A stretch of 64,000 nucleotides of DNA from Chlorobiaceae bacterium (GTDB taxonomy: Bacteria; Bacteroidota; Chlorobiia; Chlorobiales; Chlorobiaceae), in assembly GCA_013334335.1 (NCBI GenBank), contig JAAXXR010000001.1, positions 33,688 through 97,687 of the forward strand. Direction: 5' to 3'. Positions 16,511 to 49,446 of the stretch are shown here, in pieces (within the stretch, counting starts at the first letter, position 1; each line of letters opens with the position of its first letter). Position numbers and translations under genes: made by a program. The notes under the pieces were generated by a model that ran no database searches, was not told the origin of the DNA, and saw nothing but the letters and a program-made list of their open reading frames with translations.

Positions 16511-16788
16511 CGGGTTTCGTCATCGTTCTTGTCCGGAAATTCTTTTGCAGCTGAAAAGGTATGAAAAACGACGGGATTTCTCAGGGTAATCCCAAAACCC
16601 GCGCAGAATGGCGTGTCACCGGCAATACATCCCGCGGAGCATAGAAACAAATCAGAAGTGACGATTATTAACGGTAAATTGGCGAACGTTTTTCGGTGCA
16701 CGTTCATGCTTTGGGGGAAAGTGGGCCCGAAAAACGTACGATCACGTCAATTTTTCCAACACACAAACATAACAAAGGAGATCTTCCG

Positions 16789-17334
16789 ATGAACGTAGTC
16801 AATCCGGAAGCAATCGGAGTTTTCGGCCTAATGGTAACCGTTTGGGTATTCGGCCTTGAACAGCTCGGGTTTGGAATGAACAGCGAAACCGACCATGCGA
16901 AGCTTTTCAGGAGCCTTGCCAATGTCGCCCTCTGGTTTGGTGGTGCAGCCCAGATCTTCACCGCCCTTTGCCTCTATCTGTTCGATGTGGGAATGCCTCC
17001 CGAGGCGCGTGTCTTTGTCGGGACTATTTTTGCTACCTATGGCCTCTTCTGGGTCGTCGTGGCCATGCACTTCTTCAATCCCGGCGACAAGAAAGTTTAC
17101 GCCCACTTCTTTCTCGGCATCTTTTTCATGACCGCACTCTTCAGCTACAAGGCGATCATGCTCGGCAAAATCTGGCCGCTGGGCACCGTTCTTCTGCTCA
17201 TCAATGGACTGACCATCCTCTTGCCCTTCACCTGGTACAAGCATAACACCGTCATCACCAAGATCTGCGGCGCGCTGAACGTCGCTATCGGCGTCTGCGC
17301 GCTCCCGCTGCTGCTGCACTCCCTCGGCATGTAA
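16789..17334 (+). CDS. GPR1/FUN34/YaaH (SatP-like) acetate/succinate channel family protein
   Basis: NPEAIGVFGL, GGAAQIFTAL and FATYGLFW parallel the NPAPLGL, GGIAQIFAGL and FTSYGSFW motifs of YaaH. AAAGGAG RBS before ATG 16789. Confidence 0.7.
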   Translation: MNVVNPEAIGVFGLMVTVWVFGLEQLGFGMNSETDHAKLFRSLANVALWFGGAAQIFTALCLYLFDVGMPPEARVFVGTIFATYGLFWVVVAMHFFNPGDKKVYAHFFLGIFFMTALFSYKAIMLGKIWPLGTVLLLINGLTILLPFTWYKHNTVITKICGALNVAIGVCALPLLLHSLGM

Positions 17335-17881: not shown

Positions 17882-18391
17882 TCAGATAAAGAGCGAAATG
17901 TTTGCGTCGGCCGCGTATTCGAGGAAGGTGGCGGCACCGCCGTAATCGACGCCATCGATGAACTCGCTCTTGTCGAAACCGAAAACGTCCATGGTCATCT
18001 GGCAGGCAATGAACCTGACACCACTTTCGAGGCACATCTCACGGAGCAGTTCGACGGTCGCCACCCCTTTCTTTTTGAAAGTCTCTTTCATCAGCATGGT
18101 CGCCATTGAATCGAATCCGGGCATGTTGCCGGAGATGAGATTCGGAATCTGCCAGTTGACCGACTGAAACTCCTTGCTGCCGAACGGCATCTTCATGGGC
18201 ATGGCAGGGTTGCCGACGGGAGAGACTTTGGCGTCGATCTCCTTCTTCAGCAACGGCAGGCCGTAGAAGGTGAAAAAAACAACCGCCTCCATGTCCATGG
18301 CCGCGGCCGTGGAGGCGAGGATGAAGGGCGGATAGGCCCAGTCGAGCGTTCCTTTGGAAGCAATAATCGCGAGTTTCTTGGTGTCGGACAT
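17882..18391 (-). CDS. DsrE/DsrF-like family protein (DsrE2/DsrE3-type, DrsE_2)
   Basis: 169 aa. KLAIIASKGTLDWAYPPFILAS start and conserved Cys in FIACQMTMD. Last gene of the soe-like operon. Confidence 0.75.
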   Translation of the reverse strand: MSDTKKLAIIASKGTLDWAYPPFILASTAAAMDMEAVVFFTFYGLPLLKKEIDAKVSPVGNPAMPMKMPFGSKEFQSVNWQIPNLISGNMPGFDSMATMLMKETFKKKGVATVELLREMCLESGVRFIACQMTMDVFGFDKSEFIDGVDYGGAATFLEYAADANISLFI

Positions 18392-18451
18392 GATCATCTC
18401 CGAATGTTGGTTGTTGGATAGCAATACCTCTATGGTGCTCCGGAACGCCGT

Positions 18452-18886
18452 TCAGCGCCCGGAGGAAAAAATGCCGCTGGCCGCCAGGAGCAACACCACC
18501 ACCTGCAGGGTTGCCATGGCCGCATAGAAATAGTTCTTCTCGCTGAAAAAAGCCCAAATGGCCGTAGCCAGACACAGCGTCGTCGCCATGGCAAGAAAGA
18601 CAACCGATGCATAGCTTACCGAATCGCCATGGAGCAGTGTGGAGAGTGACGAAAAACAGCTCCATCCGCAGGGCACCTGCATGGTGTCGTGAAGCTCGGC
18701 AGAGCTGAGGTGCCAGTTTCCTGCAATCGTTTCAATCGGCAGCCCGAGCGGCAGGAGCTGAAGCAGGTAGAACAGGTAACCCACGGCCATTACCACGATC
18801 ACCGAATGCGAAACGAACTCCAGGGTCTTCGCGTAGGTGAGCTGGACCCGGTCAGCGTAAATCACACCTTTTTTCTTCTCCGTCAT
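18452..18886 (-). CDS. DUF1634-like small membrane protein (usual TauE partner)
   Basis: 144 aa, 3-4 TM. Its ATG overlaps the tauE stop by 4 nt. Confidence 0.6.
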   Translation of the reverse strand: MTEKKKGVIYADRVQLTYAKTLEFVSHSVIVVMAVGYLFYLLQLLPLGLPIETIAGNWHLSSAELHDTMQVPCGWSCFSSLSTLLHGDSVSYASVVFLAMATTLCLATAIWAFFSEKNYFYAAMATLQVVVLLLAASGIFSSGR

Positions 18887-19839
18887 ATGCCGAACCCTTT
18901 AAGCAGTGATCGAAAACCCGAAAGGGCAAGAATGGCAATGACAATCAGCCTGATCGTCCTGGTGTTGACCTTCGGCAAGAGTTTCGCGCCTATCTTGGAA
19001 CCGAGCATCATGCCGCCGATGGATGGCACCGCGATGAGCGGAAGGACGGCGCCCTTGAAAAGGTAAACCCAGGCCGCTGCCGAACCGTTTATCGAAAGCA
19101 CAAGCCCGCTGGTGGCAACGGCGACCTTAAGCGGAACCCCCATCAGCAGGTTGAACACCGGCACATTGGCGAATCCGGCGCCGAGCCCGAACATGCCGCC
19201 GATGAACCCGATGACAATGAACAGGGCTATCCCCAGCGGTGTCCGATGCACCTGCCAGGAGACCTCGTGCTGCCCGTACTCCTCGTAATAGAGCCCCGAG
19301 ATACCCATCATCTGCGAAAGGCGGTCCGGCTGCTTCACCTCCGGATATCCGGACTTTCCGGCCTTGATCATGATGCCGGCTATGGAGATGATCACGATGC
19401 CGAGCAGGAGCTGCACGTTCTGTACCTGCATGGATAGCCCGACAAGAGCCCCGACGATGGAGCTTACCGAACCGACCAGTGCCATTGGCAGTGCGAGTTT
19501 CAGGTCTGCAAGGCCTTTCCTGAGCAACGGGGGGCCGGCTGAAAGAGCTCCGGCAAGCGCAACCAGGAGGCCTGCACCACGGACATAATCAAGGTGAAAC
19601 GGGAAAAACCCGCTCACGATGGGCACGAACAGCACCCCGCCGCCAACGCCGGCCAGCACCGCGACAATGCCAAGCAGGAACGAAAACACAAACAGGGCGA
19701 TCAGCCATCCCCACCACGCCATGCCTTCGGCCGCATGGGGTGCGGCTGCAAGCAGCGGCGCGGCCTGCATCAGCAGCGCGACGGCTATGCCAGCCGATGC
19801 AGCAGGGACGAGCCTCCGGCCAATTGATGAAATCCTCAT
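18883..19839 (-). CDS. TauE/SafE (DUF81) sulfite/anion exporter family protein
   Basis: GVGGGVLFVPI and a repeated 4-TM architecture. The first ~39 aa look like a signal or extension. Alternative start at Met40 (19722). Confidence 0.8.
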   Translation of the reverse strand: MRISSIGRRLVPAASAGIAVALLMQAAPLLAAAPHAAEGMAWWGWLIALFVFSFLLGIVAVLAGVGGGVLFVPIVSGFFPFHLDYVRGAGLLVALAGALSAGPPLLRKGLADLKLALPMALVGSVSSIVGALVGLSMQVQNVQLLLGIVIISIAGIMIKAGKSGYPEVKQPDRLSQMMGISGLYYEEYGQHEVSWQVHRTPLGIALFIVIGFIGGMFGLGAGFANVPVFNLLMGVPLKVAVATSGLVLSINGSAAAWVYLFKGAVLPLIAVPSIGGMMLGSKIGAKLLPKVNTRTIRLIVIAILALSGFRSLLKGFGI

Positions 19840-19867
19840 GAACGGTACGATGGATATGAAATGATAC

Positions 19868-22726
19868 TCACTCCTTTCCGATATAGAAGGTCGACTCGTC
19901 CGGCCGGAACGGACGGTTCATCCAGAGCGGCCGGCGCAAGCCGCCGGGTCCCGGGGCCGGCCGGGTCAAGGCGAGCCACTCCTTGTAGATCGCGAATGAT
20001 CGTTCGGTGTCGACGAAGACATCCCCGTAGAGATCCCCCTCGTGGGCCTTTTCGATCCGGACCTTCTGGTGCCAGCAGTGCATGCCGCTGATCGGATCGG
20101 GATGGACCGGAAAGGTGATGTTCTGATGTACGCCGCCGTCTGACCAGAAGATCCTCGACGTATCGGGGTCTTTGCTCTCGAAGGGCGTGATGCTCTCGTC
20201 GACGCGCATCTTCCACTTCCCTTTCCCCTCACGGGAGATGCTCACCTTGTTGGTGGACCAGCGATTGCAGTTCGGGTCCTGTTCCCGGCGCCAACGGCCG
20301 ATGTGGTGCGAGCAGGCGACCACGCCCGGCCTGATGCCTTCAGTGACCCAGGCCCGGTTGATGAAGTAGCCGATGTCGGTATTCACCCTGATCAGCTCCC
20401 CGTTCAGGATCCCCAAAGATGCCGCATCGGCAACGCTGATCCAGACCGGGTTCCGGTTGGCAATTTCGGTCAGCCACTTTGAGTTGCCGGAACGGGAATG
20501 GATCAGCACCGGCAGGCGGAAGGTCGGTACGAGAACGAATTCGCCCTTCCCGTGGTCCATGGTCTCTTCGTGAATGTGGCTCTTGATGTAACCCGGTATC
20601 CGGTACTCGGGCCACTTCCAGTCAACCATGGTCTGCGAATAGAACTCCTGCTTCCTCGACGGGGTCGGAAAGCCTGTACACGCCTTACCCTCCACCTCGA
20701 CGCCGACGCTTTTACCGTTCTTGCTGATCAACCCGCTTCCGGGCTCGACCGACGTCCCTTCGAGGTCGGCGGTGGAGAGCGGTTTCTCGTTCACGTCGTA
20801 GACCTTGCTTTCGACCTCGAACGCACCGTACTTCTGCATGTAGCCGAGCGGGTCGAGCCCCTCCGCGGCGGCAGCTTCCGGAAGCTTCGGCACCCGCTCG
20901 AAGATATAGCGGTAGTACTCTTCGATGGTGATCTTCTCGCCTGGACGGTAGGGAGACTCGCAGTACTGCCTGATGCCCATCTTGCCATCCGGGTCGATGC
21001 GCCAGGTCAGTTCGATCCAGAACTCGTCCTCTTCCCATACTTCACCCACATTGGCCTGCCAGGTGAACTCGATCTTCTCGCCCATCTTCTTTTTCGCCAC
21101 GCGAAGCACCGGCTGGCGGAATGCGATCCATTTGCCGGCGTGGGTCTCGTAGCTGATGAGGTCGTGCCGTTCCGGAGCGTGACCCATCGGCAGCACATAG
21201 TCGGCGAAATAGGCGGTCTCGCTCCAGGTCGGGGTGAGGGCGGCATGCAGGCCGATTTTCGATTCATCCTCGAGGGCCTCGATCCAGGAGAAGCCGTCCG
21301 GATAGGTCCAGACCGGATTGAACACCCTGGTGAAATAGACGTCGAGCTTGCCACGCCCCTCCTTGAGGAAGTGCGGTAGCAGGAAGCTCATCTCGAAATG
21401 GGCGAGCGGATAGTCGTTCGGCAGGTGCAGCTCGTTCCAATAGGTCTGAGGTTTCGGTTCGGCAGGCGTATGCGGTTTGTACTTGTTCCAGGCGCTCGGG
21501 GCGGTGCCGCCGACCGTGCCGACGCTGCCGGTCAGGACGTTCAGGAAGTGCAGGGTGCGCGACACCTCCCATCCACCGAGGTTGGCGCTGCTGGCGCTGC
21601 GCCAGACATGGGTCGAGAACTGCGTCCCGGCCTCGCCGATCTTGCGCGCCACCTCGACGACGGTGGCTGCAGGAACGCCGCTCTCCTTTTCGGCATACTC
21701 GGGAGTGTATGCGGCGTACTCCTTTTTCAGCGCCTCGATAAAGTTTTCGAAAAGCAACGGGGTACCGGGGTACTCGGCCTGGAGGTAGGCCTGCCAGTTC
21801 ACCCAGTGCTCGAGGTAATCGCGGTTGTACAGCCCTTCGTCGATGATCACCTTTGCCATGGAGAGCAGCACCGCCGGCTCGGTGCCGGGATAGCTCGTCA
21901 TCCAGTAATCCGACATGCTGGCCGTGTTCGAGAGCCTCGGATCGAGCACGGCAAGCTTGGCCCCTTTCATCCGCGCCTCGATGATGCGCTGGGAGTGGGG
22001 GTTGAAGTAGTGGCCCGATTCAAGATGAGCGCTGATCAGCAGGATGAAACGGGCATTGGCATGGTCGGGCGATGGACGGTCAAAGCCCTCCCAAAGGGCA
22101 TAACCGAACCTTGCCCCGGATGAACAGATGTTGGTGTGGCTGTTGTGCCCGTCCACGTTCCATGCACGGAGCACCCACTCCATGAACCCTTCATGGCCGG
22201 GGCGGCCGACATGGTAGGATATCTCGTTGTTGCGTCCCTCCAGGATGGCCTTCCGCATCCTCGCGGCGATGTCGTCGAGTGCGCGGTCCCAGGTTATCCG
22301 CTCCCACGCCCCTGCGCCTCGCTCGCCAACCCGTTTCATGGGATAGAGCACCCGGTCCTGGTCCTCGACCTGGTTGAGGGTGGCCGGCCCCTTGGCGCAG
22401 TTGCGCCCGCGACTGGCGGGATGGTAGGGGTTTCCGACCATCTTTCGCATGGTCATGGTCTCTTTGTCGACGTAGGTCAACAGGCCGCATCCGGCTTCGC
22501 AGTTGAAGCAGGCGGTCGGAACGAGCATGTAGGCGTTTTCTTTGCGTTCCGGCCAGCTCTTCGAATCCAGTTCGACCCAGTGGTCCCACGTTTCAGGCGG
22601 CGGGCATGCGACCTCTGCACCGCACGAAGCGGGGGTTGCGGTCGATTCGCCCGCATGCAGGTCGGGAATGATCTTCAGTTTTTCGGCGAAGGACTCTATG
22701 ATGGACGGTTTATGCTGGTAGCTCAT
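19868..22726 (-). CDS. Molybdopterin (DMSO-reductase family) oxidoreductase catalytic subunit, SoeA/PSRLC3-like, no Tat signal
   Basis: 952 aa from MSYQHK. N-terminal FeS motif CFNCEAGCG...C. No RRxF twin-arginine leader. Confidence 0.85.
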   Translation of the reverse strand: MSYQHKPSIIESFAEKLKIIPDLHAGESTATPASCGAEVACPPPETWDHWVELDSKSWPERKENAYMLVPTACFNCEAGCGLLTYVDKETMTMRKMVGNPYHPASRGRNCAKGPATLNQVEDQDRVLYPMKRVGERGAGAWERITWDRALDDIAARMRKAILEGRNNEISYHVGRPGHEGFMEWVLRAWNVDGHNSHTNICSSGARFGYALWEGFDRPSPDHANARFILLISAHLESGHYFNPHSQRIIEARMKGAKLAVLDPRLSNTASMSDYWMTSYPGTEPAVLLSMAKVIIDEGLYNRDYLEHWVNWQAYLQAEYPGTPLLFENFIEALKKEYAAYTPEYAEKESGVPAATVVEVARKIGEAGTQFSTHVWRSASSANLGGWEVSRTLHFLNVLTGSVGTVGGTAPSAWNKYKPHTPAEPKPQTYWNELHLPNDYPLAHFEMSFLLPHFLKEGRGKLDVYFTRVFNPVWTYPDGFSWIEALEDESKIGLHAALTPTWSETAYFADYVLPMGHAPERHDLISYETHAGKWIAFRQPVLRVAKKKMGEKIEFTWQANVGEVWEEDEFWIELTWRIDPDGKMGIRQYCESPYRPGEKITIEEYYRYIFERVPKLPEAAAAEGLDPLGYMQKYGAFEVESKVYDVNEKPLSTADLEGTSVEPGSGLISKNGKSVGVEVEGKACTGFPTPSRKQEFYSQTMVDWKWPEYRIPGYIKSHIHEETMDHGKGEFVLVPTFRLPVLIHSRSGNSKWLTEIANRNPVWISVADAASLGILNGELIRVNTDIGYFINRAWVTEGIRPGVVACSHHIGRWRREQDPNCNRWSTNKVSISREGKGKWKMRVDESITPFESKDPDTSRIFWSDGGVHQNITFPVHPDPISGMHCWHQKVRIEKAHEGDLYGDVFVDTERSFAIYKEWLALTRPAPGPGGLRRPLWMNRPFRPDESTFYIGKE

Positions 22727-22749
22727 GGTCGTATCGGTATTGCACGGTT

Positions 22750-24321
22750 TTAGCTTAAAGGAACTGACTGCGGGGCCAGGACCCACACCTTTTCGGTAAA
22801 GAAGACGCCGGCAAGGCCCAGGAGGGCGGCAAGCGCCAGCAGGGCCGGGTCAGGGGAAACGAGGGCCGCCAGGAGCGGCAGCAGGTTGCCCATCACGACG
22901 CTGCCGCCCCAGAACTGCTGCCGGAGGGCGCCATGCCTGATAATATCGGCGGCACGGCCGGAAGATGCGGAGGGGTGCTTGCCGTAGAGTTCAACGCCCA
23001 TGATCGCCAGGTGCAGGACGAAGCTGACGGCGAGCAGCATCCTGACGGCTCCGGCAACCGCCTCGTCCATGCCGGTTGCGAACCCGGCCAAAGCCATGGC
23101 CGAACCACCCGCGATCAGCGAGTTGACCAGCATATGCAGCGAGAGCAGCGGACTCTGCCAGAAGTCCCGCCCTTTGGCCGAGCCGAACAGGAATGCGGTG
23201 TAGACCGCCGTGACGAGCGCAAGCAGGGCCCCGCCCCAAAGCGCCGCTGTTTCAACAGCCGGAAGAGCAAAAAACCTGCCCGCCCCCCAGAGGGCGAGAA
23301 ACGCTCCGAAACCGGTGATGGTATAGCCGCCACGCACCAGCCAGGAACCGAACTGGGGACGAAGCATAACCGAAACGAAACGGTCCGGACGATCAAGGTC
23401 CTTGACCAGCAGGCCGCCAGTCAGCGACAGGAAAAGCAGCGATACGCCCCAGGCCGCCCACTGGAGTGTGTCGGGCAGCGACAGACCCATGACAGCAGTC
23501 AGGACGAAAAGGAGAAGGAAGGTTCCCGCGGAGACGGCCTTCGACCATACATAAGCAGGAACCTCCCAGCCCCAGACCGCTCCTTTCGATGGTGCATCGT
23601 AGACCCTTCGGGCGAAGGTGGAACTTCCCTTGATCGCCTGGGGGGGCTGCTGGGCAGGGGCTCCGTGGTGCGACGAATCGCCGTCAAGGCAATATTTGGC
23701 AAAATGGCCGACCCCCCTGGACTGGGAGCTCCAGTGGTACGCCTGTGCGGGCGGCGCCATCATCGGGTCGAGCGAAGCTCCGTCGCCATTGATATAGAAC
23801 AGTTTTGGCCTCGTACCCTTTTCAGGCCTCCGCACCATGGTCTTCTCGGTAGAGACCAAGAGCGAGATGGGGCTCGATGGATCGTCCAGATCGCCCGAAA
23901 CGATCGCCTGCTGTGGGCAGATGGCCACGCACGCAGGCTTCAGGCCAACCTCCTTGCGGTGTGCGCAGTAGTTGCACTTCGCCGAGGTTTTGGTTTCGGG
24001 ATCGATGTAGAGCGCACCGTAGGGACAGGCCTGTCCGCAGGCCTTGCAGCCGATGCAGCGGCGTGCATCGAAATCGACGATACCGTCCTCCCGCCTGTGG
24101 AGAGCCTCGACCGGACAGATATCGACACAGGGGGGTTCTTCACAGTGGTTACAGCGCAGGACCGTAAAATGCCTGCGGGTATTGGGGAAGCTCCCCTTTT
24201 CGACATACTTGACCCAGGTCCGGTTCACCCCCAGAGGCACCTCGTTCTCCGATTTGCATGCCACCGTGCAGGCATGGCATCCGATGCACTTGCGTGCGTC
24301 GATTACGAAACCATAATTCAT
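22750..24321 (-). CDS. Fused 4x[4Fe-4S] ferredoxin + NrfD/PsrC-like membrane subunit (SoeB-SoeC fusion type)
   Basis: CIGCHACTVAC, CNHCEEPPC, CIGCKACGQAC and CNYC..CVAIC, followed by about 8 TM helices. No signal peptide. Confidence 0.85.
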   Translation of the reverse strand: MNYGFVIDARKCIGCHACTVACKSENEVPLGVNRTWVKYVEKGSFPNTRRHFTVLRCNHCEEPPCVDICPVEALHRREDGIVDFDARRCIGCKACGQACPYGALYIDPETKTSAKCNYCAHRKEVGLKPACVAICPQQAIVSGDLDDPSSPISLLVSTEKTMVRRPEKGTRPKLFYINGDGASLDPMMAPPAQAYHWSSQSRGVGHFAKYCLDGDSSHHGAPAQQPPQAIKGSSTFARRVYDAPSKGAVWGWEVPAYVWSKAVSAGTFLLLFVLTAVMGLSLPDTLQWAAWGVSLLFLSLTGGLLVKDLDRPDRFVSVMLRPQFGSWLVRGGYTITGFGAFLALWGAGRFFALPAVETAALWGGALLALVTAVYTAFLFGSAKGRDFWQSPLLSLHMLVNSLIAGGSAMALAGFATGMDEAVAGAVRMLLAVSFVLHLAIMGVELYGKHPSASSGRAADIIRHGALRQQFWGGSVVMGNLLPLLAALVSPDPALLALAALLGLAGVFFTEKVWVLAPQSVPLS

Positions 24322-24677
24322 GGACAGGTTTGCTCTAATATTTTATGACATATATACCGATTCAAAAGCAGGAAGGTCCTTGTGGAGCTCACCTCCCTCA
24401 ACGGGCTGCAGTGCAGCAAAATCAGAGCCGGGAAGTACCCTCCCGGCCCAATGTCATCCGAACGGCAAGCACCGCCCGGATGCAAAAACCCTGAGACAGC
24501 CAGCAGGTTGCTTGCTGACCGGACATGAAACATGCACTACCGCTGATCGCCGGCTGAGGACGGGTTCCCGCAGGAAAACACCGAACCTTCAGCGACCGGC
24601 ACGACAGTTTCAGGGATCGAAAGGAAGCAAAAAGAGGATTCGGAGAGTCATACAGAGCACAAACCACACCGCATGCC

Positions 24678-24699
24678 TATATAACTAACCAGTAATATA
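24678..24699 (-). promoter_or_regulatory. 22-bp AT-only imperfect palindrome (copy A) upstream of the soe-like operon
   Basis: TATATAACTAacCAGTAATATA, 20/22 identical to 49508-49529. Confidence 0.55.
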
Positions 24700-24960
24700 T
24701 TAACACATGCAATCGAAACTCGCAAACAAATTCATCCCGGAGGGCAACTTTCGATAACATGCGTTAACAAGAGATATATCGGCTCATAACAATACCTTAA
24801 CTTTCGTCATAATGCTGGCTGGGCTGGAGGAAAATGCAGAAAAAAACGAATGGCAGGATTATTTTCCTGCTGTGAGTCCTATTTTACGGTATCGTCTGAA
24901 GGCCAACGCACGGCATGACAACAGGATGTTTTCCTGTAACCCTAAAAAAACCATAGTACC

Positions 24961-25173
24961 ATGAGCGCACACATCTATAAGAAAATCGAGGTCGTCGGCT
25001 CTTCCCCGACCAGCATCGAGGAGGCCGTCAACAATGCCGTTGCCAAGGCTTCCGAGTCGGTCAGGAACATCCGCTGGGTCGAGATCGTCGAAACCCGCTG
25101 CCATGTGGAAAACCAGAAAATCGCGTACTGGCAGGTAACGGTGAAAATCGGCTTCACGCTTGACGAGAACTGA
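24961..25173 (+). CDS. Dodecin (flavin-binding) family protein
   Basis: 70 aa. YKKIEVVGSSPTSIEEAVNNAV....WQVTVKIGF is typical of dodecin. Confidence 0.8.
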   Translation: MSAHIYKKIEVVGSSPTSIEEAVNNAVAKASESVRNIRWVEIVETRCHVENQKIAYWQVTVKIGFTLDEN

Positions 25174-35235: not shown

Positions 35236-36387
35236 TCACTGCTGGGCCCTGACCGACACCAGGGTTTTGAGCAGTACGGTCAGCACGAGCAGGCCGATCG
35301 CCCAGATGCCGAGCGTTACCGACAATTCGGTGGCCGTGGGCACGTAATCTACGACCGCTTCCAGCGGCGTAGGAACGAAGCCGCCGATCACGAGGCCGAC
35401 ACCTTTGTCGATCCAGATGGAGAGGACGAGGCCCGCACAGGCCGAGGCAAGCCATCCGTTCTGGTGTCGAAGTGACGGAGTCATGAGCATGCCGACCGAG
35501 ATGAGGCCGACGATGAGCGACAACCACATCCACGGGACGAGGGGAGCGTGCCCCTGAAGGCCGAAATAGAGATACTGCAGGCTCTGTTTGTGGGCCGGCA
35601 CGTTGCTGTAGAATGCCGTGAAAAACTCAGTGCCGAGGAAGAAGAAGTTTGCCGTCCCTGCATAGGCGCCCAATACGGCGAGCTTTTGGCGGGCATCCTG
35701 GCCGACATCGAACGCTGCTGTTTTTTTCAGGATGAAGGTGATCAGGATCAGGATAGCCGTCCCAGCGGCGAACGCCGAAGCGAGGAACCTTGGGGCAAGC
35801 ACGGCCGTCAGCCAGAGGTGACGCGCAGGCAGGCCCGCGAAGAGAAATGCGGTTACCGTGTGGATACTGAAGGCCCACGGGATCGAGAGGTAGATGAGCG
35901 GCCTGGTCCACGCGGCGGCCGGGACGCCCCTGCGCTCGGCGCCGAGTACGGCCCAGGCGCTGACGAGATTGATCAGGAGGTAACCGTTGAGCACCATGAC
36001 GTCCCAGAATACCATGGAGTGTGGCGAGGGATAGAGCAGCACATTCAGCACCCGCTGCGGTTTGCCCATGTCGGCGAGGATGAAGAGCATACACATCAGT
36101 GCGGCCGACACGGCCAGGAACTCCCCCACGATGACAATCTTCGAGAATGCTTTCTGGTTGTGCAGGTAGTAGGGGAGTACGACCATCACTGCCGATGCGG
36201 CGACCCCGACCAGGAAGGTGAACTGGGCGATATAGACCCCCCAGCTGATGTCGCGGCCCATACCGGTGACACCAAGCCCGAGGCTCATCTGTCGGGCGTA
36301 TGCCGAAACTCCGAGCCCGATGAGGATGAGCAGGAGAGCAATCCATGCCCAGTAGCCGCGGCCACCCTTGAGCGCTTTCTCGATCAT
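35236..36387 (-). CDS. dsrP: DsrP, NrfD-family integral membrane subunit
   Basis: 383 aa, about 10 TM. Position after dsrO. Confidence 0.85.
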
Positions 36388-43956: not shown

Positions 43957-45036
43957 TTAGAAACGGACGTGAGCCGACTGATTGAACGTTGTTCGCGCAT
44001 GACGATAACTGTCGATCATGTTTTCGTCGAAGGTGAGGCCGGTCTGTTCGAAAAAACGCTTCCAGCCGATCCTTGCGATCCACTCGCCAACACGCTCCCA
44101 GGGACGTCCGCCCTCCTTGTAAGCCGTAAGGATCCGGCCGATCACGTCAGTCACCTCGGGCCAGCGGGGAGGATTGTTCGGCAGGTTGTGCGCCACGATA
44201 CTCATGGTCGAGGGTTTGGAACGCGCGTTGCTGTTTTTCCCACCGACCCAGATGGCGAATTTCGAATGCTCGGGATGGTTGATCTCCATCGCCGGGCATG
44301 CACCGAAGCAGGCGCCACAGCAGATGCACTTGGCCTCATCGACCATGAGTGACTTCTTGCCATTGATTACGGTCGGCCGAATGGCGGCTACCGGGCAGCG
44401 GGCCACGGCTTTCGGAAGTTCGCAGATCGTTGCGAGGTGGTCGTGGTTGATACGGGGCGGGCGGGTGTGCTTGACCACGACCGCGATGTCTGCCTGCCCT
44501 CCACAGTTGATCGAGCAGCAGGATGTGGAGAGCCTCACCTTGTTGGGCATCTGCATGTCCTTGAACTCCCGATAGAGGGTGTCCATCATCGATTTGACTA
44601 CACCCGAGGCATCGGTGGCTGGAATGTCGCAGTGAAGCCAGCCCTGGGTATGGGATACCGACGAGACACACATTCCGGTTCCACCGACCGGGAAACCGAG
44701 GGATTCAAGTTCCCTGATCATCGGCTCAACGTTCTCCTGGTTCGGCGTCAGGAACTCGACGTTGTTACGCACCGTGAAGCGCAGGAAGCCATCGCTGTAT
44801 TTGTCGGCCACATCGCACAGCAGCCGTAACATGTCGACCGTGTCCTGGCGCGGAGTGCCAGCCCTGACCGTCCAGATGGCGTCACCGCTCTCGGCGACGT
44901 GCTTCAGTACCCCTGGTTTTGGAATTTCATGGTACTTCCACTTTCCGTAATTCTTCCTGACGACCGGATGGAGGGCCTCCTCATAGGTATGGGGTCCCGA
45001 CTCAATGGTTTTCCACGTTCTTGCTGGGCTGCTCAT
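43957..45036 (-). CDS. dsrB: Dissimilatory sulfite reductase beta subunit
   Basis: 359 aa, sirohaem/FeS Cys motifs, ferredoxin insert CICCGACFGACP. Confidence 0.92.
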   Translation of the reverse strand: MSSPARTWKTIESGPHTYEEALHPVVRKNYGKWKYHEIPKPGVLKHVAESGDAIWTVRAGTPRQDTVDMLRLLCDVADKYSDGFLRFTVRNNVEFLTPNQENVEPMIRELESLGFPVGGTGMCVSSVSHTQGWLHCDIPATDASGVVKSMMDTLYREFKDMQMPNKVRLSTSCCSINCGGQADIAVVVKHTRPPRINHDHLATICELPKAVARCPVAAIRPTVINGKKSLMVDEAKCICCGACFGACPAMEINHPEHSKFAIWVGGKNSNARSKPSTMSIVAHNLPNNPPRWPEVTDVIGRILTAYKEGGRPWERVGEWIARIGWKRFFEQTGLTFDENMIDSYRHARTTFNQSAHVRF

Positions 45037-45128
45037 GCTGTATCCTGTAGGTTGTGGCGCGGCGGTCCTTTCCGGGACAGCGCGGCGGAGATTAATGATC
45101 TGGCTGAATCAGGGCGTTCGGAACGCCA

Positions 45129-46385
45129 TCAATATTTTGCCTTGAAGTAGGGATTATCCCTCGGGCGCGTCACCTGGTTGATGTCGTGCTCGATGCCGAC
45201 CCCCTCGAGGAACTGCTTCAGGCCGACACGCTCGATCGTCTCGCCGATCCTTTCGTGATCGAGACCGTTATCGTCCCACCAGTCGATGATCTCTTCGACA
45301 AGCTCGAGAAACTCCTCGATATCCTCGTCGCTCTCCATCTTCATGAACGGCACGATCAGTGAGCCCATGTTGACGCCGACCTTGAGGGTGTTCTTGCCGC
45401 CCATCAAGAGCGAGATCCCCCGCTCCTTACCGGGTGAAAGTGCCTTGGGCATGGCATTCAGGCAATGCATGCAGCGCACGCAGTCGCGGGACTCGATCTC
45501 CATATCACCACGTTTCAGTGAGATCGCCTTGGTCGGACAGTGGTTGATCACCTCGTTGACCAGGGCGTCGACACCACGCTCGGCGATCCAGCTTCTGACC
45601 TCGTCGCGGTCGACCTGGATCGCGTCCTTCCAGGTACCGATAACGGCAAGGTCGGAGCGCATGATGGCGTTCGTGCAGTCGTTTGGGCACCCCGAGAACT
45701 TGAACTTGATCTTGTAGTTCCATTCAGGCCGGTGCAACTGCCCGACGAAGTGCTTGAGCGCCTTAAGGTGCAGCTTGAGATTGTCATAGCAGGCGTTTTC
45801 ACAGCGGCCGGGGCCGATGCAGGACACCGCGGTTCGCATGCCGGCTCCGGCACCGCCGAGATCCCAACCCTTCTGGTTCAGCTCGTCGAAACACTCCTGC
45901 ACCTTGTCCTGCTCGATTCCCTGGAGCATGATGTCGCCGGTCTGCCCGTGCAAGGCGATGATGCCGCTCCCGTGCTTTTCCCAGATGTCGCACAGCTCGC
46001 GAAGCATCGCGGTGTTGTAGTGCAGGCCTGGCGCCGGCTGGATGCGCATGGTATGGAACTCTGTCGCCTCCGGGAACTTGTCCTTGATCATCGAATATCG
46101 CGTGATGATCCCGGCGCCGTACCCATCGACGGTCACGAGTCCGCCCTTCCAGTAGCCCATTTTCGTGTTGTACGAATATTCCAGCTGGTCAAGTACACCG
46201 CGCAGCATCGGCTTTTTCGTTCTTTCTGCCAGCTGCTTGAAGCCGGAGACGAAACTCGGCCATGGGCCGCTTTCGAGCTGATCGAGCATCGGTGTCGGAT
46301 TGAGGAAAGCTCCGTCGCTCTCCGCTCCACACCCGCCGCCGCATTGACACGCGCCGTTTGCTGCGCTGTCGTTAGCACCTTGCAT
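45129..46385 (-). CDS. dsrA: Dissimilatory sulfite reductase alpha subunit
   Basis: MLDQLESGPWPSFV region and ferredoxin insert. AAAGGAGG SD before ATG 46385. Confidence 0.92.
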   Translation of the reverse strand: MQGANDSAANGACQCGGGCGAESDGAFLNPTPMLDQLESGPWPSFVSGFKQLAERTKKPMLRGVLDQLEYSYNTKMGYWKGGLVTVDGYGAGIITRYSMIKDKFPEATEFHTMRIQPAPGLHYNTAMLRELCDIWEKHGSGIIALHGQTGDIMLQGIEQDKVQECFDELNQKGWDLGGAGAGMRTAVSCIGPGRCENACYDNLKLHLKALKHFVGQLHRPEWNYKIKFKFSGCPNDCTNAIMRSDLAVIGTWKDAIQVDRDEVRSWIAERGVDALVNEVINHCPTKAISLKRGDMEIESRDCVRCMHCLNAMPKALSPGKERGISLLMGGKNTLKVGVNMGSLIVPFMKMESDEDIEEFLELVEEIIDWWDDNGLDHERIGETIERVGLKQFLEGVGIEHDINQVTRPRDNPYFKAKY

Positions 46386-46456
46386 GTTGCCTCCTTTGGT
46401 TCTCGAGTATATTGTGGCCGGCGTGTTGCGCCGGCCGATTCTTCAGCGGGGTCCTA

Positions 46457-46792
46457 TCAAACGCAACCGGTCGGCTTGGGCAGCCCTGCGATCTTGCAGG
46501 CCTGGAGCGCCGGACCTTTCGGGAAGAGGCCATAGAGGAATTCCGAAGCCTCTTTCTTGTCCATGCCACGCTCGGAGGCAATCGCCTTGGTCAGCACCTT
46601 GACGGCAGGCGCGATCTGATACTCGTCATAGTAGTTCCGGAGAAACTTGACCAGAGACCAGTGCTCCTCGCCCATCTCGATCTCCTCGCCTTCGGCGAGC
46701 TTCTGCGCGACATCTTCGTTCCAGTCTTCGAGGTTTACCAGATAGCCGTTTTCGTCAGTTTCGTAGCTGACACCTTTGACGTCGATTGACAT
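46457..46792 (-). CDS. dsrC: DsrC
   Basis: 111 aa ending CKIAGLPKPTGCV (two conserved C-terminal Cys). Confidence 0.93.
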   Translation of the reverse strand: MSIDVKGVSYETDENGYLVNLEDWNEDVAQKLAEGEEIEMGEEHWSLVKFLRNYYDEYQIAPAVKVLTKAIASERGMDKKEASEFLYGLFPKGPALQACKIAGLPKPTGCV

Positions 46793-46924
46793 AATGCTCT
46801 CCTTGTGTTGGATATGATGAATGAGTTAATCTGGATGCCTCCCGGCTACCGCGGCGCGGCGCCAGGAAAACAGCGACAGGGAACTCCGGCCGGAAAGGCA
46901 GGAGGCTTATCGAGAAATATCAAC

Positions 46925-46946
46925 TATATAACTATATAGTTAAACA
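46925..46946 (-). promoter_or_regulatory. Palindrome copy C (symmetric core TAACTA-TA-TAGTTA) upstream of dsrC
   Basis: TATATAACTAtaTAGTTAaaca. The 14-bp perfect palindrome is at 46929-46942. Confidence 0.5.
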
Positions 46947-47089
46947 AATAAGCGCAATTAAGCAACAGCCCGGAATAATTTATTTCACTTTTTCATGCGG
47001 CCCTGAGAGGGAGGGCCTGCTGGTGGGGGGCTGACCTGTTCATGTCGATGGCGGGGAGCACCGGAGGATCCGGATCAAATACAACCGCA

Positions 47090-47103
47090 TAGTTATATAG
47101 TTA
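47090..47103. repeat. Tandem (direct) pair of the same half-site
   Basis: TAGTTA-TA-TAGTTA, 20 nt downstream of the dsrN stop. Confidence 0.5.
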
Positions 47104-47122
47104 ATAAATTAAATCTTATTAG

Positions 47123-48577
47123 TCAAGCATTTTCGATCAAATTCCCCGACTGAAACAACTCCGGATCAAGGCGTGAAGGCCTTTTGCCCATGCCGGTCCG
47201 GAAGGCTGCGGCCAGCGCCACGAATCGCTCCGCCCACCCCGGATTGGCCGCCGCATGCAGGTGGGCGTATGAGGCGAACAGATTGCGGTACAGCACGCCA
47301 TCCTCGCTGCCGGTGACGCCGCTGCCCCTCTGGAGATCAAACTGGTAGCTGACGTCAGCCGCTGCGTCACCCGGTTTGGAGTAATGGAATTCATGCGCCC
47401 TGATGCGCTCGCCCTGGTTGAACCATGCCGATTCTACCCGGCTGACAAGCTCCATGTAGCCACATCCGGCAGGGCGCGGCTGATAGGTGATGTCGAAGGG
47501 AAGCACCCCGGCCAGAGGCCATCGCTTGCCCCCGTAGGTTGCGCTCCGGCACAGGTAGATCAGGCCGCCGCACTCCGCCCAGGCCGGCAGTCCCGCCTCG
47601 ATGCGCTCCCGCACGCTCGCGAGCAGCCCCGAGTTCGAACAGAGACGCTGAAAAAACGACTCGGGAAACCCTCCGCCGATGTACAGGCCGTCAACCTCAG
47701 GGAGGAAATCGCTGGTGAAGGTGTCGATGAAAAGCAGCTCGGCGCCGTTCGACTGCAGTGCCTCGAGATTGTCCGGATAGTAGAAGCAGAACGACGCATC
47801 CCTGAAGACTCCGATCACCGCTTTCCTTGCCTCCCGGCGACACGATTGGCCTGCAGGAGCGGAAAGCATCGGAGGAGCCAGGTCGAAAAGCCCGCGAATC
47901 GCCTCCATGTCGCAATGACGCGCGACCATGCAGGCTGACGCGTCGATGAACGCTTCCGCGTTGTCGGCCTCTTCGACGGTTGTCAGTCCGAGATGCCGCT
48001 CGGGAAGCTTCAGGGTATCGTCCGAGGGAATCGAACCAAGCACCGGAACGTGGCAGAAGGTCTCGATCGCCTCCCGCTGCTTGGACTCCTGACGAGGACT
48101 GGCCACCTGGTTGAGCACGACTCCGGCGATGTTCACCTGTGGCCTCATCGCCTGGAGGCCCAGGACCTGTGCAGCAACACCGCGATTCATCCGCCGGCTG
48201 TCCACGACAAGCAGTACGGGAGCATCAAGAAGGCTGGCAAGGCCAGCGCTGCTGTCCGAGCCATCGATGTCGAGGCCGTCATGCAGACCGTGGTTGCCTT
48301 CGATGAGGGCAATGCCGTCACCGGCACGGAGCCACGCGTCGACAAACCGCTCACGTGTTCGCTCCTCTCCGTGCATCCACAGGTCGAGATTGTAGCACTC
48401 CCGGCCGCTTGACACCCTGTGCCACATCGGATCGATGAAGTCAGGCCCCTTCTTGAAACTGGCAGAAACCTGATTCCGAAGAGCAAAATGACGCAGGAGA
48501 CCAAGGCTGACCGTCGTCTTGCCTGAACTTTTCCAGGCTGCCGAAATCATCAACCTTGGTATCGTTATCTGCTGCAC
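47123..48577 (-). CDS. dsrN: DsrN, CobB/CbiA-like amidase (sirohaem amidation)
   Basis: PRLMISAAWKSSGKTT P-loop and a C-terminal GATase-like domain. GTG start with an AGAGGAG SD. Confidence 0.88.
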   Translation of the reverse strand: MQQITIPRLMISAAWKSSGKTTVSLGLLRHFALRNQVSASFKKGPDFIDPMWHRVSSGRECYNLDLWMHGEERTRERFVDAWLRAGDGIALIEGNHGLHDGLDIDGSDSSAGLASLLDAPVLLVVDSRRMNRGVAAQVLGLQAMRPQVNIAGVVLNQVASPRQESKQREAIETFCHVPVLGSIPSDDTLKLPERHLGLTTVEEADNAEAFIDASACMVARHCDMEAIRGLFDLAPPMLSAPAGQSCRREARKAVIGVFRDASFCFYYPDNLEALQSNGAELLFIDTFTSDFLPEVDGLYIGGGFPESFFQRLCSNSGLLASVRERIEAGLPAWAECGGLIYLCRSATYGGKRWPLAGVLPFDITYQPRPAGCGYMELVSRVESAWFNQGERIRAHEFHYSKPGDAAADVSYQFDLQRGSGVTGSEDGVLYRNLFASYAHLHAAANPGWAERFVALAAAFRTGMGKRPSRLDPELFQSGNLIENA

Positions 48578-48643: not shown

Positions 48644-48880
48644 TTACTTCTTCATGATCATGAAGGTATGCACGCCACCTGCTTCGGTGTGCGACACCAG
48701 CTCGTTGCCGGTTCGATTTGCCCAGGAGGCCATGTCATTGACCGAACCCGGATCGGTGGCAGTCAGTTTCAGCACCTGCCCCGACGCCATGCCGTCGATG
48801 GCTTTCTTGGTCTTGAGGATCGGCAGCGGGCAGTTCAGGCCTTCGCAATTCAGCTCCACGCTTGATTGGATCTCGCTCAT
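48644..48880 (-). CDS. tusA: TusA-family sulfur carrier
   Basis: 78 aa, CEGLNCPLPILK (CPxP motif). Confidence 0.88.
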   Translation of the reverse strand: MSEIQSSVELNCEGLNCPLPILKTKKAIDGMASGQVLKLTATDPGSVNDMASWANRTGNELVSHTEAGGVHTFMIMKK

Positions 48881-48972: not shown

Positions 48973-49446
48973 TTACCGTTTCGAGGCGGGCGACCGCTGT
49001 TCGGGACGGACTTTGGACAGGAAAAACAGGTCAGCCGCCTCCGGATCCACCGGTCGTCCACTTCCGTCCTCGAGCGGCTCCTCGTAGTCGTTCCACCCCC
49101 GGAGTCCGGTTTTGAGGGAAACCACGTTGCGGTAACCGAGCTGCTGCATGACCCTCGAGGCCAAGGCGCTGCGTCGGCCGGACCTGCAGACCACGACGAT
49201 TTCGCGATCCCTTGCCAGAACCAGTTCAGGGACGGTATCCTCGTAATCCCACTCGCATGCCGATTCGAGCACCCCGCGGGGTACGTTGATCGACCCTCCG
49301 ATATGCATGGCAGCGAACTCCTCCGGCTCCCGCACATCGAGCAGCAAGATCTCGGGATTTTCCTGCATTCGGTCGACGAGATGCCACGGCATGATCTCCC
49401 TGATCTCGGCGAGGCAGTCTCGGACGATGTCACTCAATCGCATCAT
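48973..49446 (-). CDS. Single-domain rhodanese (thiosulfate/persulfide sulfurtransferase)
   Basis: LLDVREPEEF and the active-site loop CRSGRRS. Confidence 0.85.
   Translation of the reverse strand: MMRLSDIVRDCLAEIREIMPWHLVDRMQENPEILLLDVREPEEFAAMHIGGSINVPRGVLESACEWDYEDTVPELVLARDREIVVVCRSGRRSALASRVMQQLGYRNVVSLKTGLRGWNDYEEPLEDGSGRPVDPEAADLFFLSKVRPEQRSPASKR

Follow-up and report, generated by a model that had tools for sequence, protein, structure and literature searches.

A five-gene cluster of a green sulfur bacterium as a probable chain of three modules in cytoplasmic sulfur oxidation

How do green sulfur bacteria (GSB) that lack adenosine 5′-phosphosulfate (APS) reductase oxidize sulfite to sulfate, and how does the sulfate then leave the cell? 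To our knowledge neither step has ever been shown by experiment. We have studied a cluster of five genes that bears on both questions, located at 17882-24321 of a 64,000-nucleotide stretch of DNA from a Chlorobiaceae bacterium (contig JAAXXR010000001.1), to which we refer as the window. The organism is a Chlorobaculum-like GSB, so far met in metagenomes only. The genes encode the two subunits of a molybdenum enzyme, a TauE-type transporter, a small DUF1634-like membrane protein and a DsrE-family protein. An initial interpretation made from the DNA alone (the sequence-only reading) regarded them as a single sulfite-handling unit, in which the DsrE-family protein may serve the molybdoenzyme. Our analysis leads to a different view of how the genes belong together. 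We consider it probable that the locus consists of three separable modules in a row, which jointly finish the oxidation of sulfur in the cytoplasm, i.e., an enzyme that would oxidize sulfite, a transporter pair that would clear the product, and a sulfur carrier that would belong to the Dsr relay.

The cluster and its molybdoenzyme

The five genes are listed in the direction of transcription.

22750-24321, minus strand: fused FeS and NrfD subunit (PSRLC3 'BC'), 523 aa; Pfam Fer4_11 85 bits, NrfD 60 bits
19868-22726, minus strand: Mo subunit (PSRLC3 'A'), 952 aa from ATG; Pfam Molybdop_Fe4S4, Molybdopterin and Molydop_binding
18883-19839, minus strand: TauE, 318 aa; Pfam TauE 138 bits
18452-18886, minus strand: small DUF1634-like membrane protein, 144 aa, about three helices; DUF1634 19.6 bits
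17882-18391, minus strand: DsrE2 (DsrE2A-type), 169 aa from ATG; DrsE_2 171 bits; NCBIfam DsrE2 equivalog

All five are co-directional on the minus strand, as originally described, and the spacing given at that time (gaps of 24-60 nt with one overlap of 4 nt) was in error by one base at most. BC and A are separated by 23 nt, A and tauE by 28 nt, and the DUF1634-like gene and dsrE2 by 60 nt; the stop codon of tauE overlaps the start of the DUF1634-like gene by 4 nt (ATGA). The same five genes, in unchanged order, recur in nine other GSB genomes (loci L001, L003, L007-L012 and L092 in our numbering), and the arrangement is therefore not the result of chance.

The BC protein begins with a four-cluster ferredoxin domain containing 16 cysteines in four groups (Fer4_11 at residues 52-144), followed by a linker and then a multi-helix quinone-binding domain of the NrfD type (NrfD at residues 246-509). 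It opens directly with its first cysteine cluster at residue 12 and has no signal peptide, and the counts of lysine plus arginine in the loops of the membrane domain fit an N terminus inside the cell. The closest chain of solved structure is PsrB (2vpw_B, 185 bits). There is no Arg-Arg pair within residues 1-60 of A, bearing out the earlier observation that neither the molybdoenzyme nor the FeS part carries a Tat or Sec signal.

The A subunit has an FS0 cluster motif (C73-x2-C76-x3-C80...C110). Its predicted molybdenum ligand is Cys201, lying within HNSHTNICSSGARFG; this residue aligns with the cysteine ligand in ArrA and PsrA, to which A is closest among solved structures. In 121 close members of the family 290 of the 952 positions are invariant, among them positions of the active-site segment GRPGHEG...HNSHTN(I/V)CS(S/A)GARFGY. 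R175, H197, T198 and R206 are also invariant, and are aligned to the oxyanion-binding positions of ArrA, which we take to be Arg165, His189, Ser190 and Lys198. These four residues provide a lead, pointing towards an oxyanion substrate.

The sequence of A is 76-91% identical to those of GSB proteins (76% for Prosthecochloris aestuarii, and 81-91% for Chlorobium and for Chlorobi metagenome-assembled genomes (MAGs)). Identity is 65-71% with proteins from Bacteroidota, Acidobacteriota, KSB1, Calditrichota, SAR324 and other groups, and 52-60% with those of Thermomicrobium roseum, Rhodococcus jostii and haloarchaea. Taken with the Pfam domains, the GSB identities mark BC and A as polysulfide-reductase-like complex 3 (PSRLC3; Frigaard & Bryant, 2008; Frigaard & Dahl, 2008; Gregersen et al., 2011). 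This supports the original assignment of the first two genes to a Tat-less complex of that type, already put forward in the literature as a sulfite oxidizer of GSB. PSRLC3 is said to have been proposed in this cytoplasmic role since 2008. As in PSRLC3, there are two genes, encoding a PsrA-like Mo subunit and a fused PsrBC-like subunit, there is no export signal, and the GSB genome carries dsr genes; we see no difference of substance, and regard the locus as a member. PSRLC3 has been presented as an alternative sulfite-oxidizing system of GSB (PMC6338057; PMC5473276; PMC9324843), and is described as two genes in the papers that we have read, where the three downstream genes are not discussed.

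How would such a complex work? A would be a molybdenum bis(pyranopterin guanine dinucleotide) (Mo-bisPGD) enzyme that the fused FeS/NrfD protein anchors to the membrane on its cytoplasmic side. Judged from sequence and context, the complex most probably oxidizes to sulfate the sulfite that is made by DsrAB, in which case menaquinone would receive the two electrons by way of five Fe-S clusters. The dsr operon of the window would be the source of the cytoplasmic sulfite. No apr, sat or qmo gene was present among the 20 larger open reading frames (ORFs) of the window that were scanned, and to that extent the earlier statement that the window lacks these genes has held.

Neighbouring genes in other phyla and the transporter pair

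Which genes accompany BC-A in other organisms? We surveyed 80 loci from species-representative genomes, together with several from metagenomes, using tblastn and clustering all the ORFs. The two-gene core, with the fused BC before A, was present in 74 of 84 loci, the remainder being cut contigs. Neighbouring genes were counted in the 46 non-GSB loci that have at least 5 kb on both flanks. A protein of the SulP sulfate-permease family with a STAS domain is encoded in 25 of these, at a median distance of 107 nt after A, and a fusion of a persulfide-dioxygenase-type (Lactamase_B) domain to rhodanese (PDO-rhodanese) in 24. A small rhodanese (13 loci), SQR (10), a YeeE-type sulfur transporter (8), and MoaD, MoaE and MoeB (7 each) were also found. 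At least one sulfur-context gene (SulP, PDO-rhodanese, rhodanese, SQR or YeeE-type) is present in 32 of the 46 loci.

These neighbours can be read as a pathway that would lead from sulfide through persulfide and sulfite to sulfate, and then to export. They are our strongest evidence that the Mo enzyme may handle sulfite, and they give independent support to the sulfite-to-sulfate role first suggested from the window. In loci L004 and L020-L086 (Bacteroidota, Acidobacteriota and others) the flanks of BC-A would amount to a sulfide-to-sulfate cluster of heterotrophs.

Some further genes were observed at these loci. The flanks in L004 and L020-L086 also carry DUF1641 and Crp genes, and the YeeE-type genes there encode transporter halves. 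In the megaplasmid of T. roseum (L088:4105-8856) BC-A comes directly after the gene of a CsoR-type 'metal-sensitive' regulator, and genes for Rrf2 and TusA lie behind BC-A in SAR324 (L005:11092-11914). The CsoR-type and Rrf2 regulators make a sulfur-responsive control of the Mo enzyme possible.

The other three genes of the window cluster behave differently. In none of 77 non-GSB loci does tauE, the DUF gene or dsrE2 lie beside the Mo enzyme. The earlier question whether soeA-like, tauE, DUF1634 and dsrE genes co-occur across and beyond the Chlorobiaceae is thus answered in the affirmative for ten GSB genomes, the window included, and in the negative for these non-GSB loci.

TauE scores 137.9 bits against Pfam PF01925 (gathering score 32.6), aligning over positions 1-236 of the 237 in the profile. 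It resembles the TauE/SafE (DUF81) exporters in this match, well above the cut-off, and in its multi-helix membrane topology. It differs from them in belonging to a GSB-specific subfamily that is always paired with the small DUF1634-like membrane protein; the best 120 homologues all appear to be from Chlorobiaceae, and every one that is named is so. Residues 1 to ~40 (19720-19839) form a poorly conserved, signal-peptide-like hydrophobic stretch, MRISSIGRRLVPAASAGIAVALLMQAAPLLAAAP, ahead of the part that aligns with TauE of other GSB; its length is conserved while its sequence is not.

The DUF1634-like protein of the window scores 19.6 bits against PF07843, below the cut-off of 27.5, and several of its GSB orthologues have a precomputed match to PF07843 or are named DUF1634 by NCBI. 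A search with a profile (A1) made from the alignment of ten GSB DUF1634-like proteins brought up relatives from GSB, and also some from Nitrospirota and similar genomes, the latter at ~30% identity. The gene is always placed directly behind a TauE gene. In two non-GSB loci (L096, from Nitrospirota, and L097) it follows the TauE gene by 10-13 nt, with no gene for a Mo enzyme or DsrE protein nearby. A related situation is found in a Chlorobaculum parvum MAG (L091:8415-12616, DRSQ01000048.1), where the syntenic, dodecin-flanked site has only dodecin, tauE and the DUF1634-like gene; BC, A and dsrE2 are absent from the 14.7-kb locus examined. The Mo enzyme seems here to have been naturally deleted or replaced. 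A restriction-modification pair, made up of a SmaI-type restriction enzyme and an N6/N4 methyltransferase, follows the tauE and DUF genes there. Since the pair occurs without the Mo enzyme in L091, L096 and L097, TauE and the small protein constitute an independent two-gene unit, and we propose that the DUF1634-like protein is an accessory subunit of TauE.

What might the pair transport? The original suggestion of a sulfur-oxyanion exporter is plausible, with sulfate or sulfite as the putative substrate, and as the second module TauE and its partner would clear the product sulfate or any surplus sulfite. We favour export of sulfate because the pair is kept where PSRLC3 is missing, and because TauE in GSB comes directly behind A, where other phyla have SulP. 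In a variant of this scheme the exported ion would be sulfite, and the pair a safety valve against its toxicity. The founding TauE has been described as a sulfite exporter, TauE-like export of sulfite derived from rDsr has been proposed in Methylovirgula thiovorans (PMC9371685), and retention of the pair in the absence of the Mo enzyme is also in keeping with such a valve. Yet the protein in the corresponding place elsewhere is of the sulfate-permease family, and both known routes of sulfite oxidation make sulfate in the cytoplasm, so that a sulfate exporter is needed either way. The points on the two sides are none of them direct, and we look on sulfite export as a serious if rather unlikely variant.

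The substrate of the enzyme and its relation to SoeABC

Could the Mo enzyme act on something other than sulfite at the cytoplasmic face, such as formate, thiosulfate, polysulfide or tetrathionate? Some homologues bear the name 'formate dehydrogenase' or 'anaerobic selenocysteine-containing dehydrogenase' in the databases from which they come, and the best similarities in NCBIfam and the PDB, all of them weak, are to DmsA/YnfE, PhsA, ArrA, PsrA and Fdh. However, every named NCBIfam family scores far below its cut-off with A: 154 bits against 666 for Fdh-alpha, 180 against 694 for PhsA, 101 against 1750 for TtrA and 111 against 1600 for ArrA. A Sec/Cys-His dyad is the defining feature of the formate dehydrogenase family. 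In A the residue after Cys201 is serine (Ser202, invariant in the 121 family members), so that the dyad is missing, and this, with the low score for Fdh-alpha, argues against that label. Identity with the periplasmic reductases Psr, Phs, Ttr and Arr is not supported either, A having no Tat motif, unlike those enzymes, and scores below the family cut-offs. Nor can we accept 'FqoABC, formate:quinone oxidoreductase' (cte:CT0494) as a name for PSRLC3; CT0494-0496 of C. tepidum, tentatively given that function in one review, are a separate, three-subunit psrABC (CT0496-CT0494). Thiosulfate would fit the same context as sulfite, since PDO-rhodanese fusions also produce it, but the genes that recur beside the enzyme encode a sulfite-forming protein of the dioxygenase type and a protein of the sulfate-permease family. 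On balance a substrate other than sulfite seems improbable to us.

If the enzyme is a sulfite oxidase, as we prefer, how does it relate to SoeABC? The complex has much in common with SoeABC of Allochromatium vinosum and Aquifex aeolicus, including a Tat-less Mo-bisPGD subunit with an FS0 cluster and cysteine ligand, a four-cluster FeS protein, a haem-free anchor of the NrfD superfamily, and thus five Fe-S clusters in the complex; the predicted orientation is cytoplasmic in both, and both co-occur with sulfite-producing pathways. It differs in that B and C are fused into one protein of 523 aa, with the gene order BC-A, where SoeABC has three separate subunits, and in that the anchor matches Pfam NrfD. 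The literature is not uniform on how far the Soe name extends. According to the abstract of Dahl (2013), which PMC8232776 quotes, SoeABC genes are universal in purple and green sulfur bacteria, and a tree in PMC9324843 that includes both SoeA and PSRLC3 labels related sequences SoeA. In a survey of anchors of the NrfD type, SoeC is confined to Proteobacteria, Clostridia and Aquificae.

In our own comparisons A had no match to any SoeA entry in NCBIfam, Pfam or the PDB. An exhaustive search of representative proteins returned only members of the same family or Tat-bearing Psr-like enzymes, the latter being the nearest sequences outside the family, at 28-36% identity. Against plasmids, tblastn found relatives of 52-60% identity in Thermomicrobium, haloarchaea and Rhodococcus, a Tat-bearing type with the gene order B-NrfD-A-TorD at 33-38% (Azoarcus and Sulfurovum), and unrelated soluble Mo enzymes in Rhizobium, Agrobacterium, Ralstonia, Caballeronia and Jannaschia.

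Three Tat-bearing relatives of 30-39% identity (P0247, P0264 and P0298, with RRTFLK, RRKVLG and RRQFLK, respectively) share with the Tat-less family an N-terminal YPPFExW motif. The A family thus seems to hold both periplasmic and cytoplasmic branches.

These comparisons raise a wider possibility, which we put forward tentatively and at rather less than even confidence. The family of A with an N-terminal PPPExWD motif and a fused BC could be a group of cytoplasmic sulfite:quinone oxidoreductases distinct from the proteobacterial SoeABC. It would then be the sulfite oxidase of many non-phototrophs, overlooked where annotation relies on Soe. Such organisms may include Bacteroidota, Acidobacteriota, KSB1, Calditrichota, Thermomicrobia, Rhodococcus and haloarchaea. 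Their route would run from SQR through persulfide dioxygenase to sulfite, then to sulfate and out by SulP, the part that TauE and the DUF1634-like protein would play in GSB as a sulfate exporter. In a sediment study SoeABC went undetected though the Bacteroidota there carry persulfide dioxygenases (PMC12345210). Together with the distribution of SoeC, this hints that standard Soe models do not capture the PSRLC3-type family.

DsrE2, the dsr operon and the cluster as a whole

We turn now to the last gene of the cluster. Its product scores 219 bits against the NCBIfam equivalog SulfCarrDsrE2 (cut-off 210). Its ORF is open as far upstream as a TTG at 18424, and the ATG that gives 169 aa matches the homologues. 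Two cysteines, C120 and C130, are invariant in the ten GSB sequences, and two strictly conserved cysteines are the criterion for DsrE2A (PMC4175335). By these features the 'DsrE-family' gene is a dsrE2, of type A. The window also contains the genes with which DsrE2 might be expected to work, identified by tblastn with the proteins of a Chlorobium-type locus (L003).

48973-49446, minus strand: rhd, 67% identity to the L003 protein
48644-48880, minus strand: tusA, 79% identity to the L003 protein
43960-48577, minus strand: dsrN, dsrC, dsrA and dsrB, 59-91% identity to the L003 Dsr proteins
35236-36387, minus strand: DsrP-like NrfD protein; further dsr genes run down to ~35236

The rhd and tusA genes head the dsr operon of the window, about 30 kb from dsrE2. 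In five Chlorobium-type loci (L003 and L009-L012), by comparison, the DUF gene is followed by dsrE2-rhd-tusA-dsrN-dsrC-dsrA-dsrB, with gaps of 18-33 nt in L003, and in L008 and L092 it is followed by tusA-dsrE2. In the window, P. aestuarii (L001) and L007, dsrE2 is followed by unrelated genes. Overall dsrE2 adjoins tusA and/or rhd in seven of the ten GSB loci, while in the window they share the same 64 kb without being adjacent.

A set of rhd, tusA and dsrE2 has been published for A. vinosum and Chlorobiaceae, as a relay that loads DsrEFH and DsrC (PMC4175335; PMC11094781). The window protein resembles the DsrE2 of this relay in rDsr oxidizers (Stockdreher et al., 2014; Liu et al., 2014) in scoring above the equivalog cut-off, in its two cysteines and in the linkage seen in seven of the ten GSB; the difference is that dsrE2 is detached from rhd-tusA here and follows the transporter pair. 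Because it runs into rhd-tusA-dsrNCAB in five Chlorobium-type genomes, we would sooner place DsrE2 in the Dsr sulfur relay than pair it with the Mo enzyme. As the third module it would act with Rhd and TusA to feed DsrEFH, DsrC and DsrAB.

Why, then, does dsrE2 sit behind the transporter genes? The simplest reading of the gene orders is that the ancestral GSB arrangement was a single long cluster extending from BC to the end of the dsr genes (BC-A-tauE-DUF-dsrE2-rhd-tusA-dsrN...), and this would account for the position of dsrE2. In the lineage of the window the cluster would have been broken between dsrE2 and rhd.

The alternative is that the five genes form one functional unit, in which DsrE2 passes persulfide or thiosulfonate to or from the Mo enzyme and TauE/DUF1634 exports the product. 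We find this very improbable: adjacency and common direction in ten GSB genomes, and the carriage of thiosulfonate by relatives of the DsrE3A type (PMC4175335), speak for it, but the Mo enzyme has neither dsrE2 nor tauE alongside it in the 77 non-GSB loci, dsrE2 is linked to tusA and/or rhd and dsr genes in most GSB, the largest gap in the cluster is the one preceding dsrE2, and the C. parvum MAG keeps the tauE-DUF pair with neither of the other components. The sequence-only reading was therefore half right. The enzyme and the likely exporter stand, whereas a DsrE protein dedicated to the enzyme and an indivisible five-gene unit are not supported.

We also examined the surroundings of the cluster for signs of how it might be transcribed.

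24322-24960, minus strand: non-coding, 639 nt, bounded by the divergent dodecin gene on one side and the start of BC on the other; presumed promoter and 5′ leader
24961-25173, plus strand: dodecin gene, 70 aa, divergent, upstream of the cluster
16696-17334, plus strand: multi-helix membrane protein, 212 aa, immediately beyond the 3′ end of dsrE2 and opposite to it in direction; nothing found in Pfam at E ≤ 1e-5

A terminator scan revealed no convincing terminator within the cluster, and none after dsrE2; the counts from the promoter and terminator scans were near those expected by chance. It is on the short gaps and the lack of a convincing internal terminator that we would place the five genes in one co-transcribed operon. 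The leader of BC contains several hairpins (fold z-score −2.5), including a G+C-rich, terminator-like hairpin followed by GATTTTG at 24425-24449. Alignment of the upstream regions of ten GSB shows that the G+C-rich stem and GATTTTG are common to the window, L007, L008 and L092, and that a conserved TTAGAGCAAACC box directly precedes the start codon of BC. The leader could be regulatory. A riboswitch or other known RNA upstream of BC was sought in Rfam, with no match at the gathering score or at E ≤ 1 other than a chance match to a miRNA. The flanking genes are unrelated to sulfur, with PEP carboxykinase and the divergent dodecin upstream, and the membrane protein, an MFS transporter and MsrB downstream. 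Dodecin is also a neighbour in P. aestuarii, in the C. parvum MAG and in a C. limicola-like contig.

Several points weigh against the scheme of three modules and should be set beside it. We found no biochemical or genetic test of PSRLC3 in the literature searched, so that the role in sulfite oxidation comes from distribution and context, and there is no obvious SoeA-type sequence among the nearest relatives of A in the exhaustive search of representative proteins. The assignment of a substrate to TauE is likewise an indirect one. A search for transcripts that might link the genes found the sequence only in metagenome DNA runs, and the gap before dsrE2 (60 nt here, and 205 nt in P. aestuarii) could house a separate promoter. 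Lastly, the role of DsrE2A has been called unclear (PMC11094781), and in three genomes (the window, P. aestuarii and L007) dsrE2 has stayed with the genes of the Mo enzyme and transporter while rhd-tusA lie elsewhere. The last two points would also suit a single unit.

With these reservations, a chain of three modules is the explanation that we prefer. Its core enzyme was already known, and what we add is modest: the conserved pairing of this enzyme with TauE/DUF1634 in GSB, the presence of SulP in their place elsewhere, and the modular history of the cluster. For the biology of the GSB, the locus sets the leading candidate for the sulfite oxidase beside a candidate exporter, and thereby offers two concrete genes for the final steps of sulfur oxidation. 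The BC-A enzyme, which is very highly conserved, also adjoins genes for the oxidation of sulfide and persulfide in many aerobic heterotrophs. If BC-A is indeed a sulfite oxidase, inventories of the sulfur cycle that depend on SoeABC models would undercount the oxidation of sulfite.

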